Assembly: GCA_011364975.1 (NCBI GenBank)
Contig: RDOE01000002.1
Span: 9,793 to 73,792 of the forward strand
Origin: Promethearchaeota archaeon
GTDB lineage: Archaea; Asgardarchaeota; Lokiarchaeia; Sigyniarchaeales; SOKP01
Reading direction: 5' to 3'
DNA length: 64,000 nucleotides
Each line of letters starts with the position of its first letter. Positions within the stretch are counted from its first letter, which is position 1. The notes below the pieces were generated by a model. That model was not told the DNA's origin. It did not search any database and saw only the letters and a list, made by a program, of their open reading frames with translations. This document shows positions 24,945-33,880 of the stretch, in pieces. Made by a program: the position numbers and the translations under genes.

Positions 24945-25985
24945 TTAAACCATTAGGAGCATTTTATCAATCTTTTGATCAGTTAAGAGTATTCTATAAT
25001 ATGGTTCATTATTTTTATAAATAACCTCCTCTAATTTACCTAATACGAAAACTTTCTCCCCTTTAACTGCCTGTTCACAATATCTTCCTCGGTATGAAGT
25101 AATCTTAGTTATTTTATTCATATCGAGATGAGATATTTTTAGATGTTGTTCAATAATCTGGAAACATTTTATTGAATAGGAGCAGGGTGTAAAAATTGAT
25201 TCAGAAGAATCGATTATTTCACCTTTTACTGCGATGGTACCTAGATTCTTGAATTGATAATCATAATATGTTCCTTCCCAATCTTCAGGACTTTTAATAT
25301 AACGAATAAAGAAATCAATATTAAGATATTTTCCTTGATGTTGTTTTCTTTGTTCACTTCTTAAGAAATCTTGAAATGAAACATCAGAGCCCCCAAATCT
25401 CCAATTGTAGTGAGATTTAAACTCATCAAGTTTATATTTTCTGCAGGAATTTGGTTTTTCATATATTTCTTTTAATTTATTTTGAAATTCTAAAGAATTT
25501 TGAGTACCATAAATGATGATATCTATATCCGAATCTAAGTTACTTAATCCGATCATAGAAGATCCGGATATCCCAATAGAATTCTCTGAAAGAGAAGAGT
25601 TTTGTATAAATAGATCGCATAAATCAAAAGACATTAACTCTAATTTTGAAAGGTTTTCTTTATGATGTAAAAATTTGAAATAGTTTTTTGGAGTATAAAT
25701 TTTTTTAATATCTTCACATTTAACTCCTTGAAGTGGAATGTCAAGTTCTTTAGAATAGAATAAATATTGGGGAAATTTCTCTTTTAGTATCAAAAATCTA
25801 TCATCAAAAGCATAGACTTTTTTGAATTTAATACCATTTTTTACACGATCTCCATTTTGATCTGGAAAAAATCGTAAAAAACAAATTTTTCGATCTTTTG
25901 GGTGATGAATACCTTTTATATCAAAAAAAAGATTATCTTTTTTCGTTTCAAGGTAATCTCCTTCAATTCCTTTTGGAACTTCCAT
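24945..25985 (-). CDS. archaeal Pol-beta-fold nucleotidyltransferase (COG1665-like)
   Basis: KGIHHP, GISGS...SDIDIIIYG, C-terminal OB-like GEKVFVLGKLE. Confidence 0.8.
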   Translation of the reverse strand: MEVPKGIEGDYLETKKDNLFFDIKGIHHPKDRKICFLRFFPDQNGDRVKNGIKFKKVYAFDDRFLILKEKFPQYLFYSKELDIPLQGVKCEDIKKIYTPKNYFKFLHHKENLSKLELMSFDLCDLFIQNSSLSENSIGISGSSMIGLSNLDSDIDIIIYGTQNSLEFQNKLKEIYEKPNSCRKYKLDEFKSHYNWRFGGSDVSFQDFLRSEQRKQHQGKYLNIDFFIRYIKSPEDWEGTYYDYQFKNLGTIAVKGEIIDSSESIFTPCSYSIKCFQIIEQHLKISHLDMNKITKITSYRGRYCEQAVKGEKVFVLGKLEEVIYKNNEPYYRILLTDQKIDKMLLMV

Positions 25986-26006: not shown

Positions 26007-27110
26007 TTAATAATTTGAAGGAGTCTTTGTTTTAATTTTATATTTTGGGATTTCTCTTACTTTTCTTAATTCTCTTTCAAAATCCTTCTTTTCTTGTAAA
26101 AATCTCTCTTTGTCTCGATCTAATTTCTCTCTTTCTCGTTTAATTATATTTTTTTCACTTTCAATTCGAGATTTTTCATTTTCTAATCGCTTAAATTGAT
26201 TATTTAATTCTTTTAATTTATTTTCTGAATTACGAATTTTATGTTCTAATGAAAAGTAAGTATCTTCAGCTTTAGGAACCTTGTAATTTAATTCCTTTAA
26301 TTTTGCTTCTTGTTCTTTTCTCTTTCTTTCGAGGTTCTTTAATTCATCTTCTAGCTTGTCTTTAAATTTCTCTAATTCCGTTTTTTTCTTTTCTACTTCT
26401 CGGTTTTTAAGGTTTAAGTCTTTCTTTTTATATTTTACTCCTCGCTTTTCTTCTTGTAATTTTCTTTTCTCATCTTCAATTCGATTTCTTTCATCAATAA
26501 TTTCTCTTTTCAAATCATTAATCTCTTTGTCTAAATTGTCTCTTTCTCTAGTTAGACTTTTTATTTCATTTCTTAACCGCATTAAATCGTTTTCTAGCTT
26601 TTCAATAGTTCGTTCTAATGCTTCCTCTCGTCTCTCCATTCCAGGTATTTTAGTTTTAATTTCCTTTATACGGTTTTGTGCTCCTTCTTTTTCTCTTTCT
26701 AATAGTCTTTTTTCCTCGGTTAAGTTTTCTTTTAATCGCTCTAATTGTTCTTGATATGCTCTTAAGTCTGACTTTTTTTGATTTAACTCTCTTTCTTTTT
26801 GATCAATCTTATTTCTACTCTCATATATTACATTTTTCATCGCATCCATTTCTTGCTTTAACTTCTCGCGCTGATCGAGTAGATCTCTGACTTCAAGTTC
26901 TTTTTCTTTTCTTTTATGTTCTAAATTTTTAATGTTTACTTGATAGTCTTCAAATTTCTTTATAACTCTTTCCCATTCGGTTTTTTCTCTGTTTAATTTA
27001 ATTCTTTCTTCCTTAATTTTTTTCAATAATTTCGAATCTGGAATGCTTTCTATACTTTCTTCCGGTGTTTTCTCTCGAATTTGAAACTTTGGAATATTAT
27101 TATCAGTCAT
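26007..27110 (-). CDS. long coiled-coil protein
   Basis: About 320 aa of E/K/R-rich heptads with no globular or ATPase motif. Confidence 0.85.
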   Translation of the reverse strand: MTDNNIPKFQIREKTPEESIESIPDSKLLKKIKEERIKLNREKTEWERVIKKFEDYQVNIKNLEHKRKEKELEVRDLLDQREKLKQEMDAMKNVIYESRNKIDQKERELNQKKSDLRAYQEQLERLKENLTEEKRLLEREKEGAQNRIKEIKTKIPGMERREEALERTIEKLENDLMRLRNEIKSLTRERDNLDKEINDLKREIIDERNRIEDEKRKLQEEKRGVKYKKKDLNLKNREVEKKKTELEKFKDKLEDELKNLERKRKEQEAKLKELNYKVPKAEDTYFSLEHKIRNSENKLKELNNQFKRLENEKSRIESEKNIIKREREKLDRDKERFLQEKKDFERELRKVREIPKYKIKTKTPSNY

Positions 27111-27285
27111 ACTAACTTAATAACTCAATTTTTCGTTTAATTAAACTATATTAATACAGGCTCTAAAGTGTTTGCACTTTCAATTTTAGATAAATTTCTA
27201 CTTGTTAATTATTTATATATCTTAATTTCCATAACTTACTAGAAGTATAATAAAAAGATCATTCAAAAATTATGGTGTTTCTATA

Positions 27286-27708
27286 ATGGAATTTGATGAG
27301 GAGTTTGATGAAGAGTTTGATGAAGAGTTTGATGAGGAGTTTGATGAGGATTTAGATGAAGATCTAGATGAGCAATCATCAGAACCTCCTGGAAAAATTC
27401 CAGATGATGATGTTAAAACCAAAACCCCTGAACCTAAAGTAATTCAGGAAGGGAAAAAGATTTCAGTCTACTTCATGTCAACTATAGGTCCAGGTGAAAA
27501 AAAGCAAAAACTGTTAATTAACACGGGAAATAAGGTTGGTGATGTAAAAGAAACCGCTGCAAATTTGTTTGGTTTAGATCCTGCTGACTTTCATTTATCC
27601 TCGAGTGGGGTTACGATGGATGAAAATTCAAGCTTAAACGATTATAATATAGCTGATGGAGATGATATTCTTTTGATTCCGGCAAGCACCGCGGGATTAA
27701 AATGTTAA
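27286..27708 (+). CDS. ubiquitin-like (UFM1-like) modifier 1 with an acidic N-terminal extension
   Basis: Beta-grasp signature G..MD....L.DYNI.DGD.ILLIP. Ends PASTAG-LKC. Confidence 0.85.
   Translation: MEFDEEFDEEFDEEFDEEFDEDLDEDLDEQSSEPPGKIPDDDVKTKTPEPKVIQEGKKISVYFMSTIGPGEKKQKLLINTGNKVGDVKETAANLFGLDPADFHLSSSGVTMDENSSLNDYNIADGDDILLIPASTAGLKC
27289..27372 (+). repeat. 7 x 12-bp tandem repeat encoding (E/D)(F/L)DE
   Basis: GARTTTGATGAR x5 followed by GATYTAGATGAR x2. Confidence 0.9.
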
Positions 27709-27725
27709 TTAAATTTATAAAATAA

Positions 27726-28547
27726 TTAGCTTTTTCCATTAATTTTTTTTCTGGTAGGAATTAGAGCTAATTCATCATCATCTTCAATATTGTAGTCAAT
27801 AATTTTTAAATCATCATCTAACAAGATTCCTCCAGAGGAAATTAGAAAACCATCTGGATTATAATCAAATAAAACACCTATTTTCTGTTTGATTATATTT
27901 ATCAATTCCGATGTATCAATTATCATTATTTTCGTTTTCTCACCAGGTTCAATTAATGATCGAACATAAACACGTATTTTCTCATCAATTTCAACAATTC
28001 TTTTTGGTGGGGTATAATTTATAGGATCGTCTGTGACACTTCTGTTTTTTATCATAGTTTCAATTAGTTGAATTCTCTCATCAGGATCGAAGTATAATAA
28101 TTCTCTAATGAAAAAAATTTTATCCATTTTTGAAAGTCCCAATAGGTTTATTTTCTCTAAATCTTCTTTTTTAAATACAGAAAAGATATAGTCATTAATT
28201 TTTGGAATATCTTCAAATGATTCATTTGAATCAGCATAACTATCAATTAAAGGATTTGCCTCAAAGTAGTCTTCAATAAATTGATTAGCTAGATTTTTTA
28301 ATGATTTCTTTTGAGGTTGATATTTTTGTTGAGGTAGCGCTTTTTTCTTTCCTAAAAACTTATATGAGCTCTCTTTTGACTGAATAATGGTATAAGCAGT
28401 ACTAGTAGATAATACAGCTACACTACTAATAGTTAAAAAGAGATATAAAGGAATACTCTCTACCCTCGAAAGGAACAATATTATATAAATACAAGTTACA
28501 ACAATGTAGAGAGTTATTAAACCAAATGCTCTATTTTTATTTCTCAT
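27726..28547 (-). CDS. membrane-anchored protein with a C-terminal UFM1-like domain (no terminal Gly motif)
   Basis: Two N-terminal hydrophobic helices. The C-terminal domain VYVRSLIEPGEK...SSGG..LD.....DYNIEDDDELALIP is a paralog of both modifiers. Confidence 0.82.
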   Translation of the reverse strand: MRNKNRAFGLITLYIVVTCIYIILFLSRVESIPLYLFLTISSVAVLSTSTAYTIIQSKESSYKFLGKKKALPQQKYQPQKKSLKNLANQFIEDYFEANPLIDSYADSNESFEDIPKINDYIFSVFKKEDLEKINLLGLSKMDKIFFIRELLYFDPDERIQLIETMIKNRSVTDDPINYTPPKRIVEIDEKIRVYVRSLIEPGEKTKIMIIDTSELINIIKQKIGVLFDYNPDGFLISSGGILLDDDLKIIDYNIEDDDELALIPTRKKINGKS

Positions 28548-28628
28548 AATTTTTATACTATTATTCTAAATTTCTAATGTATTATTCAAAATTTAAATTC
28601 CATTGGTATAAATCTGAAATTTTATAAC

Positions 28629-29300
28629 CTACTCACCCACAATAGAGTTCATTATTTTTGTATATTTCTCAGTATCTAATCTAAATAATATTCTTTTATT
28701 ATCTTTTTCAACCTTTATAATCCTTAATTTATGAAGAATTTTAAGATACTTTTTAATTGTATTGTAATTCTTCTTTAAATTCTTCGCTAATTGGGTAGCT
28801 TTTAAGCTATTTTCTTCTTTTAACATAAATTCGATTATTTCTTGGATAATTACTTGTTTTAAATAATAAGATAACTCGTCGTATTCGGGATTTGACTCAT
28901 AGTGAAAGATTATTCTTTGATTATCAATTTTTTTTGATCTAGTAAATCCAAATTTTTCTAAGCAAGATAAATGCCATAATACTTGATTGCTACCAATATT
29001 TATCGCTTTCATAATTTCATTGATATTGGCAGGTTGTTTCTTGATATAATTATAAATTTCATTTCTGATTGGATGTTCGATAATATTATTTTTCATTAAT
29101 TTAGTTCCTGGTATTAGGATTCTTTTTTTAATTAGTTTTTTTATAATTTTTTCAATACTATTTTTATTCAAATTTGGGTTAAATTTCACCCTATTATTTA
29201 TATAAACAACAATATCCTCAATTGAAAAAAATGGCTTCTTTTTTAAATACTCCTTTATTAGATCACAAACAATAGCTTGAAGGGTATCAGAAGAGCTCAT
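28629..29300 (-). CDS. tandem winged-HTH transcriptional regulator (ArsR-like)
   Basis: RNEIYNYI...NQVLWHLSCLEKFG and TQLAKNLKKNYNTIKKYLKIL. Confidence 0.8.
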   Translation of the reverse strand: MSSSDTLQAIVCDLIKEYLKKKPFFSIEDIVVYINNRVKFNPNLNKNSIEKIIKKLIKKRILIPGTKLMKNNIIEHPIRNEIYNYIKKQPANINEIMKAINIGSNQVLWHLSCLEKFGFTRSKKIDNQRIIFHYESNPEYDELSYYLKQVIIQEIIEFMLKEENSLKATQLAKNLKKNYNTIKKYLKILHKLRIIKVEKDNKRILFRLDTEKYTKIMNSIVGE

Positions 29301-29565
29301 AAACTTTAATTTTTTTTTGTTAAAATACCTTGATTTTTAAACTAAATCTTCTTTCTAAACAGTATTTCCAATAATTATATATTAATAAGCCTACACTCAA
29401 TTTATAAATATATTTTCCTAAGAATGCTTTTGAAACTTTAGTACTTATTTGAGAAATTTTTAATATTTCAAATTCATTCCAAATGGTTTTTTAATATCAG
29501 ATTTGCGTGTTATTATTAAAAAATAAAATAAAATTAATATTTAAAAATATAAGAATGTGATTTGA

Positions 29566-29898
29566 ATGAGTTTTGACAACGATTTTGATGAAGAATTAGA
29601 GCCTGTTAAATCTAAAACTCCATCAAGTAAAACACCCACAACAGGTAAAAAGTTGACTTTATACTTTATGTCAACTATTGGTCCTGGTGAAAAGAAAGAG
29701 AAATTAACAGTGAATGACGCTAACCGTGTAAGTGATATCAAACAAACATTAGGAAATTTATTTGGACTCGATCCTGATGAATTTCACCTTTCATCTGGTG
29801 GAGTAACTATGGATGAAAGTAATCAACTAAAAGATTATAATGTTAATGATGGCGATGATATCCTTCTGATCCCAGCGAGTACTGCGGGATACTTTTAA
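29566..29898 (+). CDS. ubiquitin-like (UFM1-like) modifier 2
   Basis: Close paralog of 27286..27708. Ends PASTAG-YF and lies directly upstream of the E1. Confidence 0.87.
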   Translation: MSFDNDFDEELEPVKSKTPSSKTPTTGKKLTLYFMSTIGPGEKKEKLTVNDANRVSDIKQTLGNLFGLDPDEFHLSSGGVTMDESNQLKDYNVNDGDDILLIPASTAGYF

Positions 29899-29973: not shown

Positions 29974-31206
29974 GTGATAATATTGGATAAGGATTCAGAT
30001 TTTTTTGCAAAAGGAATGTCAGCGGAAGAGAGAGATCTGTATGATCGCCAATTTCGTTTAGAAGGATGGTCTCAGAAATTGGTAAAAAACTCGAGAGTCT
30101 TAATAGCAGGTGTTGGTGGATTAGGTTGTGAAATTGCAAAAAATCTAGCGATGTTAGGAGTAGGTCATTTAGATCTTGTTGATTTAGACATTATTGAGCA
30201 TTCTAATTTAAATCGTCAAATTTTATTTACAGGCGCTAAGTTAGGGGCACCAAAAGCAATTGTCGCGGCTCAAAAATTAACCGAGATTAATCCAAATATT
30301 GTTGTGAAAGGATATCATTCTTCTTTAGAACGGTTAGACCCTGCTTTATACTATGCTGCTGATGTTATTATTGGAGGCCTTGATTCAATGAATGCCCGCT
30401 TGAATTTAAATGCTCAGTGTATACGCTTTAGAAAGCCGTTTGTAGATGGTGGAGTATCTGGTTATCATGGGCATATGTATTCGATCTTTCCTTATCAAAA
30501 TGCTTGTTATGAATGTAATCCACTTCCAGTATCGGAAAGTGATGAAATGGCGGCCTGTACTGTAGTAGGGGTTCCTCGAAAACGTATTCATTGTCTTTTT
30601 AAAGGAGATATGGCCTTTAAAGAAAAATTTGATAGAGATCCAAATCCAAAAAATATAACAGATATTGAATTTATTCAAAAAGTTGCAAATGAATTAGTAA
30701 ATAAACATAATTTCTTACCAGAATATACAATAGATGATATTGTTAAAATCATTAATCGCCACGATCCTGGGATCATCACGATTAATGCGGTAATATCTGC
30801 TTTAGAATCTCATGAGGCTGTTAAAATATTGCATTGGAAAAAAGGTCATAAGGGTTTAGGACACCCTATTGCGAGTTATGTAATATTTAATGCAATGACA
30901 ATGAAACTTTATCACATAGAAAAGAAGAGAAATCCAGAATGTTCTCAATGTGGTAAAAATACAAGGCGTGTGGTCATAAAGATGAGAGCTCAATCACCAT
31001 GTTTGAATATAATTCGAACATTAAAAAAGAATGGGTTTGAATTAGAGCCTGAATTTGAACCAGTTCTAACCCTGCAAGATTATAATGATATCTTGGTTTT
31101 AGATTTAGAGCAGAGTTTGATTGAGAATGGTTTGAGGAATTACGAATTTTTAACTGTTGCAGGGTTTAAGGGTGGAGAAATTTATGTTACCTTAAAATTA
31201 ATTTAA
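29974..31206 (+). CDS. ubiquitin-activating enzyme E1 (UBA3/UBA2-like)
   Basis: YDRQ, GVGGLG, D.D.IE.SNLNRQ, CYEC, catalytic ACTVVGVPRKRIHC, CSQC and a C-terminal UFD-like domain. Probable start is the TTG at 29983 after GGTGA. Confidence 0.93.
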   Translation: MIILDKDSDFFAKGMSAEERDLYDRQFRLEGWSQKLVKNSRVLIAGVGGLGCEIAKNLAMLGVGHLDLVDLDIIEHSNLNRQILFTGAKLGAPKAIVAAQKLTEINPNIVVKGYHSSLERLDPALYYAADVIIGGLDSMNARLNLNAQCIRFRKPFVDGGVSGYHGHMYSIFPYQNACYECNPLPVSESDEMAACTVVGVPRKRIHCLFKGDMAFKEKFDRDPNPKNITDIEFIQKVANELVNKHNFLPEYTIDDIVKIINRHDPGIITINAVISALESHEAVKILHWKKGHKGLGHPIASYVIFNAMTMKLYHIEKKRNPECSQCGKNTRRVVIKMRAQSPCLNIIRTLKKNGFELEPEFEPVLTLQDYNDILVLDLEQSLIENGLRNYEFLTVAGFKGGEIYVTLKLI

Positions 31207-31298: not shown

Positions 31299-31826
31299 AT
31301 GAGTATAAGAAGTAGTCGGATTTCTCAAGATTTTGCAGGATTAAAAAAGTTACTCAAGGATGGTACTATTATTCAATTAAAACCTTTTAATCCAAAAAAG
31401 AAAAGCATTGATCATTTAGCAATTACGCTCAAAGGACCTAAAAATACAGCATATGCAGGAGGCTTGTTTAAATTGGAGATGAGTTTCCCTGCTCAATATC
31501 CTAAGCAACCACCATTTGTAAGAATGCACACTCCGATATGGCATCCAAATTTTTGGCCAAAACCAAATGAATATAAGGGACAGAGAAATATTTGTTTAGC
31601 ATTAGTGGATCCTTCTTTAGCAGGTAAAAAAGGAGGATGGAGTCCTTCAAAAACTGCTGTCACCATTGTTCAAGCCATAATTGCTATGTTAAATACCAGT
31701 GGTAAATATGTAAATCCTACTGATGTGTTTAATAAGAAAGCTGCAATGGAAATGATGAAAGATCCAAAGTTTTTCGATAAAAAGGTTAAAAATTTAGTAA
31801 AGAAGTATGCAAAGGATAAATGGTGA
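31299..31826 (+). CDS. ubiquitin-conjugating enzyme E2 (UBC)
   Basis: GP..T.Y.GG.F, YPKQPP, HPN, catalytic ICL, WSP. Confidence 0.94.
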   Translation: MSIRSSRISQDFAGLKKLLKDGTIIQLKPFNPKKKSIDHLAITLKGPKNTAYAGGLFKLEMSFPAQYPKQPPFVRMHTPIWHPNFWPKPNEYKGQRNICLALVDPSLAGKKGGWSPSKTAVTIVQAIIAMLNTSGKYVNPTDVFNKKAAMEMMKDPKFFDKKVKNLVKKYAKDKW

Positions 31827-31832
31827 ATCTAA

Positions 31833-32654
31833 ATGAATGAAGATGATAAGATTAGTATCTCGATTAAGGAAGCAGTTAAGCAAAAAATTAAAGAGAAAAT
31901 TAAAAAAGAATTACTTGAAGAGATATATAATGAACTAAAGTTAGAAGAAGAATTAGAGGAAGAAATAACATTTGAGTTAATAGATACCAAACCGTTAGAA
32001 CACTCAGAAAGTATTAAGGAAAAACTCGAACCCATTCCTATGGTGCCAGTAAAAACTACCGCTAATAGTGATAAAATTAAAGCACAAATTGTGATAACTG
32101 TTAAAGCTGTTCTAAAGATCGCAAGTCATTCTTTAAAGTACGCTCACTCTAAAATTCCACGAGAAGATTGGGTTGAAGTGATCGGCTTGTTGGCAGGAAA
32201 ATACGATAACGCAAAGGGAGTGTTATATGTTGAAGATGCTTATCCTATGGGTCATGGCACAGCTGTCTACGCAGAGATTAATGTTGAAAGGAATCGAAAG
32301 TCTGGTCATGAACGAGCGTATGAAGAAATTATCAAAAAGGGGTTATTCATTTGTGGATGGTATCATTCTCATCCTTCCTATGGTTGTTTTATGTCTAGAG
32401 AAGATTTAGGAACTCAAGCACGGTATCAAAAGTTATGGGATAAAGCTATAGCTTTAGTTATAGATCCATATCAAATTAATGGATTATCATTAGGATTTGA
32501 AATATATCGTGCAAATTTTAAAACTAAAAAATGGTTTTCGGTACCTTTTGACATCAAGGGGTACTTAGACGTAAAAATGTTACCTGAGATATTAGACTTT
32601 ATGAATCCAATAATTGAGGGAAGAGCAGCCTATTTAGAATATGATGAAGAATAA
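31833..32654 (+). CDS. JAMM/MPN+ metallo-isopeptidase (CSN5/Rpn11-like)
   Basis: EVIGLLAG and GWYHSHPSYGCFMSREDLGTQ...ALVIDP. Confidence 0.94.
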   Translation: MNEDDKISISIKEAVKQKIKEKIKKELLEEIYNELKLEEELEEEITFELIDTKPLEHSESIKEKLEPIPMVPVKTTANSDKIKAQIVITVKAVLKIASHSLKYAHSKIPREDWVEVIGLLAGKYDNAKGVLYVEDAYPMGHGTAVYAEINVERNRKSGHERAYEEIIKKGLFICGWYHSHPSYGCFMSREDLGTQARYQKLWDKAIALVIDPYQINGLSLGFEIYRANFKTKKWFSVPFDIKGYLDVKMLPEILDFMNPIIEGRAAYLEYDEE

Positions 32655-32683: not shown

Positions 32684-33880
32684 ATGGTAAAAAAGAAGGG
32701 AATAGCAATAATATTTATTCTATTTCTCCTAATAGGACTTATCCATGGTTTAATTTCAATTTCACTAAATATTTCTTTAACCTGGATATTAATTGGATTG
32801 TGGATAATAGTTTCCTTAAAAATTATAGAAAATATAAGAAGACATCGCGAGTTTAATTCTCCTCATAATACTGCCTTTTTTGTTGTAATCCCTTTATTCA
32901 TGGGGATTTTTTATTCCATTTGGGGGTATTTTACGGGTATTTTTGGAGAAAATCTTATCGAAGGTTCGAATCTTTATTTTAGTGGTTGGAGTCTTATTTT
33001 TGGATTTCCTTATGTAACATATGGTTCCTACTCATTATATCGTTGCTTTAAGAAATATAATGTTATTTATTTTGGGGCAAAATCTATAAAAGCTAAGACT
33101 TTTGGATTTATTTTAGCTTTTGTGGTACTTAGCTTTATTATAACTTATTGGATAATATTTTATTCAATATTTGATTATTTTGAGACAATATTAATACCAC
33201 TTCATTTGTCGTTAAATCTTAATCTTTTAATATTATTTATTAGTTCTATTTTAATATTAACTATATTTGGATTTTTTGCTTCACAGAGAACCCTACCTGC
33301 ATTAACTAATGATTATATAGAACAACGAACGAGAAAAATAAATTCTTTAGCGAATGCTTCACCGTCATCTTTGCCCAGAACTCAGAGACGACAAGTAACA
33401 AATAGACACTCAATCCAAACGCCCTCCAGTAAAACTGAAACTATTGCTTCAAGAACTCGAACTAATTCATCAAGAACTACTCCAACCTCTCAAAGAAAGA
33501 CTCAAAGGACCAAGATAACTTATAAAACGAATTCAACAAGAAAAACCTCTGGAACATCACAAAATCGAGGAAAAAAAATGCGAAATTTAGATATATACAA
33601 ACCTATAGCAGCATTACTTTCACCAGAAGATTTTAAATGTATTTTCTGCTTTAAATTACCAAAACTCCCCGAAGATAGAAGTAGAGGTATCATTTTATGC
33701 CCAAATTGTAAATATCCTGCACATGCAGATGAGTTCAAAGATTGGGTAAGAACTTCGAATCTCTGTTCAAGATGCAGTACACCAATTTCCTCTAGCTTCA
33801 GAAACAATCCTAAAATTATTAGCGTAAAAAATTATATGGTAATTTATAAATACTTTTTAAACAAGAAAAATAAAAAATAG
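32684..33880 (+). CDS. multi-pass membrane protein with a C-terminal RING-variant finger (putative E3 ligase)
   Basis: About 6 TM helices, an S/T/R-rich linker, then CIFC-x16-CPNC-x4-H-x2-E-x3-W-x6-CSRC. Confidence 0.78.
   Translation: MVKKKGIAIIFILFLLIGLIHGLISISLNISLTWILIGLWIIVSLKIIENIRRHREFNSPHNTAFFVVIPLFMGIFYSIWGYFTGIFGENLIEGSNLYFSGWSLIFGFPYVTYGSYSLYRCFKKYNVIYFGAKSIKAKTFGFILAFVVLSFIITYWIIFYSIFDYFETILIPLHLSLNLNLLILFISSILILTIFGFFASQRTLPALTNDYIEQRTRKINSLANASPSSLPRTQRRQVTNRHSIQTPSSKTETIASRTRTNSSRTTPTSQRKTQRTKITYKTNSTRKTSGTSQNRGKKMRNLDIYKPIAALLSPEDFKCIFCFKLPKLPEDRSRGIILCPNCKYPAHADEFKDWVRTSNLCSRCSTPISSSFRNNPKIISVKNYMVIYKYFLNKKNKK

Follow-up and report, generated by a model that had tools for sequence, protein, structure and literature searches.

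Asgard-type ubiquitin systems attract study as forerunners of ubiquitin signalling in eukaryotes, and we know of no described substrates or rules of site choice in them. In the SUMO system, the E2 Ubc9 directly reads the acceptor motif hydrophobic-K-x-E, and a copy of this consensus in the N-terminal tail of SUMO2/3 serves for chain building. An archaeal ubiquitin operon of Caldiarchaeum subterraneum has been described to consist of Ub, E1, E2, a small RING protein, and Rpn11 (PMC5654768, PMC6043591). In Lokiarchaeota, the Ub and ESCRT genes form two separate genomic regions (PMC9192718). By a term search, that paper does not mention "N-terminal extension", "acidic", "di-glycine" or "Ala-Gly", and its two "coiled-coil" passages deal with Vps23-type proteins and the title of a reference rather than with a modifier partner.

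The locus described here lies in a stretch of 64,000 nucleotides (the window) from a Promethearchaeota archaeon. Like the Caldiarchaeum operon, it encodes a modifier, E1, E2, a JAB/Rpn11-like protein, and a RING-like protein in one row. Compared with the published description of that operon, it differs in the acidic N-terminal arm with a KTP motif and the Ala-Gly end of the modifier, and in having a membrane-anchored E3-like protein and an attached coiled-coil partner gene. As in the Lokiarchaeota Ub region of PMC9192718, no ESCRT genes are found among the annotated genes of this locus. No description of the KTP motif of these modifiers was found in the literature passages searched. The term "KTP motif" was used there only for a Raf kinase in a nematode.

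The locus and its motif sites

The features of the locus are listed in the table. In the Pfam profile search, modifier 2 scored 29.1 bits against PF00240, above the cut-off of 25.4, and modifier 1 scored just under it (24.0 bits). Solved ubiquitins were matched by the modifier profile. The C-terminal ends of modifiers 1 and 2 are ASTAG+LKC and ASTAG+YF, respectively. All modifiers end in A-G or in A-G followed by 1–6 residues, and G108 is invariant; the end is Ala-Gly rather than Gly-Gly, and E1, E2, and JAB are encoded in the same row. The presumed E3 has no Pfam match, and its Cys and His columns are invariant over positions 307–384 (38 sequences). The membrane-anchored protein with a ubiquitin-like (Ubl) domain has neither the motif nor a terminal Gly, and KTP was absent from its 26 orthologs. 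For the family of the coiled-coil protein (CC), Pfam and NCBIfam gave generic coiled-coil matches alone, far below the cut-offs, and a protein search for CC relatives returned one fragment from a candidate list saturated by coiled-coil words. The nucleotidyltransferase (NTase)-like gene follows CC in 24 loci of the source genus and in one locus of a second genus of the family; it was not seen beside CC in other families.

Table. Genes of the locus and motif sites within them (positions in the window)
Feature	Position	Strand	Remarks
NTase-like gene	24945..25985	-	directly downstream of CC; weak PF01909 match
CC, 367-aa coiled-coil protein	26007..27110	-	divergent from modifier 1; motif at both ends
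CC C-terminal motif IKTKTP	26019..26036	-	aa 359-364; three residues from end
CC second internal K-V-P	26274..26282	-	aa 277-279
CC internal motif-like IKTKIP	26643..26660	-	aa 151-156
CC N-terminal motif IREKTP	27063..27080	-	aa 11-16
Modifier 1, 140-aa ubiquitin-like protein	27286..27708	+	acidic FDEE run, one motif, beta-grasp fold
Modifier 1 motif VKTKTP	27412..27429	+	aa 43-48
Membrane-anchored protein, C-terminal ubiquitin-like domain	27726..28547	-	PF00240, 26.8 bits
Modifier 2, 110-aa ubiquitin-like protein	29566..29898	+	first in Mod-E1-E2-JAB-E3 row
Modifier 2 double motif VKSKTPSSKTP	29605..29637	+	aa 14-24; VKSKTP-S-SKTP
E1-like adenylating enzyme	29974..31206	+	PF00899 ThiF, 193 bits
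E2 conjugating enzyme	31299..31826	+	PF00179, 89 bits; candidate motif reader
JAB/MPN isopeptidase	31833..32654	+	PF01398, 52.3 bits
Presumed E3, membrane protein	32684..33880	+	C-terminal zinc (RING-like) domain
E3 linker string QTPSSKT	33416..33436	+	not part of motif

Every string that a first-pass annotation had reported in CC, the two modifiers, and the E3 was found where it had been placed; the E3 string lies beyond the interval given in that annotation (26007..29643). The alignments indicate that the motif is real, with the consensus [IV]-x-[ST/E]-K-T-P. The CC motifs lie 3 to 16 residues from the protein ends. An internal CC site, IKTKIPGMERRE, is kept among closer relatives and not across families. 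The E3 linker, which had been counted among the motif carriers, has to be dropped as a chance match: TP..KT or KTP occurs in 0/37 E3 orthologs, the corresponding part of the alignment is an S/T/R-rich linker without conservation, and K[TV]P was not found in 35 E3 sequences.

The AF2 model of modifier 2 has a mean pLDDT of ~49–66 over the three 10-residue blocks of residues 1–30 and block means of ~87–91 over residues 31–100, and the fold's strands and helices cover residues 29–103. The tails that carry the motif are therefore modeled with low confidence and are probably disordered. There is no sign in this model that the tail docks on its own Ubl fold.

Conservation, rarity, and the coiled-coil partner

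Among the first 40 loci compared, KTP was kept in 34/34 CC, 31/35 modifier-1-type, and 31/32 modifier-2-type orthologs. In an alignment of 45 CC sequences, which are 26–69% identical to the CC of the window, only five columns are invariant (K14, P16, L39, E64, and K362), and three of them belong to the motif. In the N-terminal motif, I11 is Ile in 42 sequences and Val in 3; in the C-terminal motif, I359 is Ile in 42 and Met in 3. Over 71 modifier sequences from several families, K17, T18, and P19 are each conserved in at least 90%, and the acidic arm varies in length. The motif lysine is present in 45/45 sequences at each CC end (K14 and K362) and in 68/68 modifiers where residues were aligned; the proline two residues after it is present in 45/45 and 44/45 (P364) at the CC ends and in 68/68 modifiers. 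The compared sequences are relatives, so these counts overstate the number of independent events. More distant relatives have two to five tandem heptad copies, and the copy number overall is one to five. The motif is, as judged from these alignments, the most conserved feature of the tails. The earlier claim that it is kept in otherwise divergent, probably disordered tails is supported by the ortholog alignments and the AF2 model of modifier 2.

Single-genome statistics were based on 3348 ORFs with a minimum length of 80 aa (1,087,078 aa) of the source genome. Both [VI]K[TS]KTP and K[TS]KTP occur three times genome-wide, and all three occurrences are in this locus. For plain KTP the count is 173, near the expectation from composition (a hand estimate) and not raised. 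The looser pattern [IVM].[STE]KTP occurs six times, four of them in CC and modifiers 1 and 2, against an expectation of 5.0 by composition and a mean of 4.3 over 100 within-protein shuffles. Proteome-wide enrichment had been suggested as a check: in this one genome, K[TS]KTP is private to the locus, and the looser pattern is near the shuffled and compositional expectation. KTP located at most 25 residues from a terminus was observed 15 and 11 times (13.3 expected), and no proteome-wide set of KTP carriers was found in the source genome. CC alone among its proteins carries KTP at each end. A single genome is a weak basis for the motif, and the comparative evidence decides.

In relatives, KTP is found 6.5 times per 1000 aa in CC and 10.8 and 11.4 times in the modifiers, compared with 0–0.17 in E1, E2, JAB, E3, wHTH, the membrane Ubl protein, and the NTase; this is a 40- to 70-fold excess of CC and the modifiers over the neighboring gene families. 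A DNA pattern for tandem KTP-4aa-KTP gave 55 sites in 61 related genomes. Thirty-two are in modifier or CC genes, 1 in a CC relic, 15 in short or stop-bearing frames, and 2 in an unrelated enzyme, which leaves 5 unassigned. In five genomes of families lacking CC, the counts of tandem KTP in other proteins were about those of the reversed-pattern control, and the modifier alone was recognizable. By these comparisons, the motif is essentially private to the modifiers and CC.

CC orthologs adjoin the modifier in other genera and families, and the divergent synteny is conserved. Among 251 genomes of the phylum, all CC-positive genomes (55/55) have the modifier, and CC occurs in 0/147 modifier-negative genomes. 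Among the 61 relatives, co-occurrence of CC and the modifier was 45/49, with CC in 0/12 modifier-negative genomes. The proposal that the motif links CC to the modifiers is supported by the conserved divergent synteny and by the confinement of CC to genomes that hold the modifier. The KTP tail also extends to families in which no CC was found. In one family, a K/P-rich protein with KIPKQ repeats, and not a coiled coil, occupies the position of the divergent neighbor. We regard this protein only as a possible analogue of CC.

Possible roles of the motif lysine

The first-pass annotation left a choice between an acceptor lysine and a proline-directed phosphosite. K[TVI]P occurs 298 times and R[TVI]P not once in 9,586 aa of tails that contain 478 Arg, although the basic residue at position −2 exchanges between Lys and Arg (38 K/6 R, 26 R/4 K, and 36 K/5 R at the sites counted). 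On this comparison, the motif lysine is irreplaceable. The threonine is conserved in 41/45 (T15) and 38/45 sequences at the CC ends and in 64/68 modifiers. In CC, it is replaced by Val, Leu, Lys, Arg, Ala, or Gln in 4/45 and 7/45, and in the first modifier copy by Ala or Val in 3/68; over all orthologous sites, Ser occurs as well. The second modifier copy frequently reads K-V-P or K-I-P or has Ala for Thr. Ser or Thr does not always precede the proline. Because the lysine never becomes Arg and the threonine is sometimes Val, Ile, Ala, Lys, or Arg, the data lean toward a lysine-centred site and weaken the phosphosite.

We predicted a four-chain complex of E2, the E3 zinc domain, the Ubl domain, and residues 333–367 of CC. 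The CC tail scored 0.51 (runs 0.52, 0.51, and 0.40), which is graded weak, with 0.01 for the best of three controls and 0.00 when E2 was replaced. The runs agreed in at least 85% of the contacts, with a partner pLDDT of 61 or more. In the calibration, 116 of 157 solved complexes and 2 of 215 mismatches attained the mark; scores of 0.60 or less comprise only 18 of the 157 solved complexes and both passing mismatches, and a score at such a level is wrong more often than not unless the proposal was already likely. The four-chain fold is unlike the calibration set, and the result gives no contacts. The prediction lends weak support to an E2-dependent docking of the CC tail on the conjugation enzymes.

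Our tentative preference, to which we would give somewhat less than an even chance, is that the motif is a functional short linear motif whose lysine is read by the conjugation machinery of the operon, with the lysines of the modifiers and CC as acceptors. The motif would act from the flexible N-terminal tail of Asgard-type ubiquitin-like modifiers ending in Ala-Gly and from both extremes of CC, and it would most likely be read by E2 directly. Since the KTP tail occurs in families without a detected CC, the primary reader is to be expected among the operon's core enzymes. Chains would arise as the tail lysine of one modifier accepts the next modifier, and the ends of the CC rod would be tagged likewise; CC, whose ends would duplicate the tail signal of the modifier, would then be a built-in substrate or scaffold. 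A bolder version, which we consider rather unlikely, is that K-T-P constitutes an archaeal, E2-read acceptor-lysine code, independent of the SUMO consensus, by which rods and modifiers are covalently stitched. Each modifier would contribute a single donor end plus one or two lysines as acceptors, and CC would have acceptors at both ends. With such donors and acceptors on modifier and rod, the enzymes would stitch covalent chains or a network, possibly a ubiquitin-like cross-linked scaffold at the membrane where the E3 sits.

The same residues can be explained by non-covalent docking, a doubtful but possible alternative in which a common reader (E2, the E3 zinc domain, E1, JAB, or the CC rod) binds the motif and the lysine is not an acceptor. 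With multivalent copies at its ends, the rod would bring the reader and the modifiers together, and CC would serve as a scaffold or compete with the modifier tail. The conserved hydrophobic residue at −3, the Lys, and the Pro resemble a pocket-binding peptide, the one to five tandem heptads recall avidity-driven motifs, the motif persists where CC was not found, and the weak E2-dependent score fits docking as well as catalysis. However, charge alone would predict some Lys-to-Arg replacement, which is absent although the neighboring basic position swaps; moreover, no reader domain was identified, and the modeled modifier tail is not docked on its own Ubl domain. A lysine or proline modification unrelated to conjugation (methylation, acetylation, or hydroxylation), a polyproline-type hinge, or a contact with nucleic acid or membrane seems quite unlikely. 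The invariance of Lys and Pro, the internal K-[IV]-P sites in the middle of CC, and the KIPKQ-repeat neighbor of one family would suit it, but the motif is restricted to the modifier and the partner encoded beside it, which argues for a system-specific reader and not for a general enzyme or a physical property, and no modifying enzyme is conserved at the locus across families.

Regulation of the modifiers and CC by a Ser/Thr kinase at a proline-directed phospho-Thr is improbable. T-P is the commonest form, and tandem heptads with S/T-P resemble known phospho-repeat tails, but in addition to the replaceable threonine, which is less conserved than the lysine, and the second modifier copy, often without it, the repeat is K-I-P in the K/P-rich neighbors of one family, possible analogues of CC, and no kinase gene is conserved at the locus. 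A chance or compositional product of K/T/P-rich tails has a negligible probability. An exact 5-mer of the modifier 1 tail does recur in 43/3346 other proteins of the genome, and the E3 string is such a match; however, the invariant motif columns at both ends of diverged CC sequences and the excess over neighboring families, with genome-wide KTP not raised, are incompatible with it, and a chance origin of the CC and modifier motif is ruled out by the ortholog comparison.

Comparison with SUMO

The analysis defines a six-residue motif with an irreplaceable lysine on the modifier and one dedicated partner, which offers a specific candidate for a substrate or scaffold together with a residue to mutate. 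An acceptor role of this lysine would make the motif an archaeal counterpart to consensus-directed conjugation, for which SUMO is the best-known case to date; a docking role would make it the first partner-recognition code of Asgard-type ubiquitin systems. As in SUMO, a lysine-centred short motif is present in the disordered N-terminal tail of the modifier and in a candidate substrate, and the lysine is irreplaceable; E2-dependent docking has weak support from the fold. The motif sequence itself is not SUMO-like, contrary to the first suggestion: the hydrophobic residue is at −3 and not −1, position −1 is Ser, Thr, or Glu, Thr is at +1, and Pro, not an acidic residue, is at +2. The carriers are a single dedicated partner rather than many substrates, and the covalent use of the lysine is putative here. 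Against the acceptor reading, the hydrophobic residue at −3, the invariant Lys, and the Pro at +2 would suit a tight non-covalent pocket or a different lysine modification just as well, and the motif departs from the SUMO type, the only well-known E2-read consensus. The E2 is not especially Ubc9-like and resembles Ubc9 no more than it does other E2s; among solved structures, its best relatives are of the Ubc15, UBE2R, UBE2T, and UBE2L3 types.

The motif in its locus and genome

The coiled-coil protein (CC) and two ubiquitin-like modifiers encoded in the window share a short motif, [IV]-x-[ST/E]-K-T-P, whose positions are counted here from its lysine. It occurs near both ends of CC (IREKTP, aa 11–16; IKTKTP, aa 359–364) and in the N-terminal tails of modifier 1 (VKTKTP, aa 43–48) and modifier 2 (VKSKTPSSKTP, aa 14–24). 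The first-pass annotation had quoted these strings together with QTPSSKT in the linker of the E3-like membrane protein, and all of them were found in the translated window. The E3 linker had been counted as a further motif carrier; its string matches by chance, in an S/T/R-rich, unconserved linker.

Features of the locus in the window and of related genes in loci of relatives (L-numbers)
Feature	Sequence	Position	Strand	Remark
Nucleotidyltransferase-like gene	window	24945-25985	-	after CC
CC, 367-aa coiled-coil protein	window	26007-27110	-	divergent from modifier 1
Modifier 1	window	27286-27708	+	upstream of operon row
Membrane-anchored protein, 273 aa, with C-terminal ubiquitin-like domain (membrane Ubl)	window	27726-28547	-	upstream of operon row
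Winged-helix protein (wHTH)	window	28629-29300	-	upstream of modifier 2 row
Modifier 2	window	29566-29898	+	first in ubiquitin-like operon row
E1-like ThiF protein	window	29974-31206	+	193 bits
E2	window	31299-31826	+	PF00179, 89 bits
JAB/MPN peptidase	window	31833-32654	+	operon row, after E2
Membrane protein with C-terminal zinc domain (E3-like)	window	32684-33880	+	no Pfam match
K/P-rich neighbour, example	L105	3196-3855	-	divergent from modifier
Long Ubl-ended protein	L067	9691-11448	-	two KTP right before Ubl fold
Long Ubl-ended protein	L102	8072-9814	-	no KTP
Long Ubl-ended protein	L103	37-1719	+	no KTP

Calling ORFs of at least 80 aa across the whole genome gave 3348 ORFs with a total of 1,087,078 aa. 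Three K[TS]KTP sites lie among them, one in each of CC, modifier 1, and modifier 2, and CC is the only called ORF with KTP at both ends. The plain KTP core occurs 173 times, about the expectation estimated by hand from composition, and shows no general enrichment at protein termini (15 and 11 seen versus 13.3 expected). The looser pattern [IVM].[STE]KTP was found six times, four of them in CC and the two modifiers, against 5.0 expected from composition and a mean of 4.3 in 100 shuffles. An exact 5-mer is shared with the modifier 1 tail by 43 of 3346 proteins. Statistics from a single genome are by themselves feeble evidence for the motif.

The divergent CC and modifier 1 genes are separated by 175 bases. 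The nucleotidyltransferase-like gene (NTase), on the CC strand, begins about 20 bases past CC; it comes after CC at 24 loci of the window's genus and at one locus (L130) of a second genus in the family, was not seen beside CC in the fetched loci of other families, and has no family in NCBIfam. The membrane Ubl lacks a terminal Gly, carries KTP in 0 of 26 orthologs, and is kept between both modifiers in the window's family only. An insert separates its gene from modifier 1 in three loci (about 8.8 kb in L033, G017:C43, 4078–12939; about 2 kb in L046 and L048).

Conservation and anatomy of the motif

The modifier was detected in 49 of 61 related genomes, from whose matches 40 surrounding regions were fetched. 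The window's genus retains the full arrangement, including the divergent CC, and elsewhere in the class, other genera and families have a single modifier with a divergent CC, in the order CC, modifier, E1, E2, JAB, E3. KTP is kept in orthologs: it is carried by 34/34 CC sequences (6.5 per 1000 aa), 31/35 sequences of modifier-1 type (10.8 per 1000 aa), and 31/32 of modifier-2 type (11.4 per 1000 aa). The density is 0 in membrane Ubl, JAB, and E3 orthologs and 0.06–0.17 per 1000 aa in those of E1, E2, wHTH, and NTase. More distant relatives have tandem repeats of the motif with a seven-residue period, reaching five copies at one CC N-terminus and at most three at CC C-termini. A DNA pattern for KTP-4aa-KTP matched 55 places across the 61 genomes, 50 of which were examined: 32 fall within genes for a modifier or CC, 15 in frames that are at most 66 aa or stop-bearing, two in an unrelated enzyme, and one in the 24-aa remnant of a CC C-terminus in a genome without a detected modifier.

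The anatomy of the motif was derived from the tails of 110 modifiers and 46 CC proteins, which contain 266 KTP instances and include sequences from 30 loci added from other genera and families. In the consensus, −3 is [IV], −2 varies and is often basic, and −1 is S, T, or E, followed by K-T-P. The 45 aligned CC sequences are 26% to 69% identical to the window's CC, with a mean column identity of 37%; K14, P16, L39, E64, and K362 are invariant, and conservation reaches at least 90% at I11, T15, I359, and P364. In 71 aligned modifiers, conservation of K17, T18, and P19 is 90% or higher, level with the fold core. The AF2 model of modifier 2 places the folded strands and helices in residues 29–103 and has low confidence in the tail (block means of 49, 53, and 66 over residues 1–30).

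The motif lysine is Lys at 45/45 and 45/45 CC sites and in 68/68 modifiers with an aligned residue, although these sequences are relatives, so that independent events are fewer than the counts suggest. Across the tails (9,586 aa, 478 Arg), K[TVI]P occurs 298 times and R[TVI]P never. Position −2 readily exchanges Lys and Arg at the CC C-terminus (38 K, 6 R), at the CC N-terminus (26 R, 4 K), and in modifiers (36 K, 5 R). Because the motif lysine is never Arg while position −2 swaps, the pattern indicates that the lysine side chain itself is needed, not just its positive charge. The threonine is looser: it is kept at 41/45 and 38/45 CC sites and in 64/68 modifiers, with V, L, K, R, A, Q, or S as its replacements, and I, V, or A are common there in the second modifier copy. 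The replacement of Thr at motif sites indicates that its hydroxyl is dispensable. These patterns favour a lysine-centred function. The first-pass observation of the shared motif is confirmed, and stands on firmer ground than the window alone could show.

CC also has internal K-[IV]-P sites, IKTKIP (aa 151–156; 26643–26660, minus strand) and YKVPK (aa 276–280; KVP at 26274–26282, minus strand). The former is the terminal motif with I for T and is kept among closer relatives only.

Possible roles of the motif lysine

Our best, tentative reading is that the motif lysine is an acceptor read by the conjugation enzymes. In the modifier tails it would serve chain building, and the motifs at the CC ends would be sites of tagging. 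The acceptors would then be K17 and K22 in modifier 2, K46 in modifier 1, and K14 and K362 in CC. The last Lys or Arg of modifier 2 is distant from its C-terminus, so trypsin would leave a long remnant on a tagged lysine. The likeness to SUMO proposed at first does not extend to sequence form, as the motif lacks the form of the SUMO consensus, and the window's E2 is not specially Ubc9-like. A proline-directed phosphosite, also proposed at first, would centre on the Thr-Pro pair and is unlikely, weakened by the replacement of Thr at motif sites and by the frequent I, V, or A in the second copy. A non-covalent docking motif is nearly as likely as an acceptor site. No description of the motif was found in the literature searched.

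A possible reader of the motif was modeled in a four-chain fold of E2, the E3 zinc domain (300–398), the modifier 2 Ubl domain (28–108), and the CC C-terminus (333–367) as partner, with a separate alignment for every chain. The E2 has an invariant cysteine, C99. The verdict was weak support, with a score of 0.51 (runs 0.52, 0.51, and 0.40) versus 0.01 for the best of three controls. The runs agreed in at least 85% of contacts, the partner pLDDT was at least 61, and an unrelated protein in place of E2 gave 0.00. The output was a score with no residue contacts. The mark was reached by 116/157 solved complexes and 2/215 mismatches, a calibration set unlike a four-chain fold; 18/157 solved complexes and both passing mismatches reached it at 0.60 or below. 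The model leans no more than mildly toward an E2-dependent contact of the CC tail.

Distribution of the modifier and CC

The modifier turned up in 104 of 251 genomes drawn from the phylum, spread over eight families. Loci were fetched from all eight, and each encodes a modifier whose tail carries KTP, mostly in two or more copies. CC was found in 55/251 genomes, limited to four of the eight families. All 55 also have the modifier, and 0/147 modifier-negative genomes gave a CC match; the range of CC therefore lies inside that of the KTP-tailed modifier. It follows from this nesting that the first role of the motif should sit with a core operon component, and that CC should bear the modifier's tail signal as a copy. 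Among the 61 relatives, a CC match covering the termini was found in 45/49 modifier-positive and 0/12 modifier-negative genomes; four of the latter gave weak matches to the central coiled coil only.

The relic lies in locus L078 (G044:C1:592613-595641) near base 1501 on the minus strand, as a 24-aa stop-to-stop frame that ends in a double KTP heptad and looks like what remains of a CC C-terminus. No modifier was detected in the same genome, a hint that CC and the operon were lost together.

Eight genomes of the window's genus have an extra modifier-2 copy on another contig (e.g. G016:C25, G024:C39, and G014:C220), 80–85% identical to that of the window, which could represent a second operon or strain mixture in the assemblies. 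One family without CC has a K/P-rich protein of 215–267 aa divergent from the modifier (L104–L106, L117, and L118), with KIPKQ-type repeats at its N-terminus, middle, and C-terminus; it is a possible analogue of CC. The operon of this family is divided into E2-JAB-E3 and Mod-E1. In L067, L102, and L103, proteins of 560–585 aa with a terminal modifier-like Ubl domain lie beside CC. Another family has a second modifier paralogue right after the first (L107 5505–5876, L115 1604–1924, and L116 3721–4098), which retains the acidic arm and lacks the KTP motif entirely.

The modifiers of the window and of loci L031–L132 all end in Ala-Gly, none in Gly-Gly, and G108 is invariant in 71 sequences. Many orthologs stop right at Ala-Gly and others extend one to six residues further, as do modifier 1 (LKC, 27694–27708) and modifier 2 (YF, 29881–29898) of the window.
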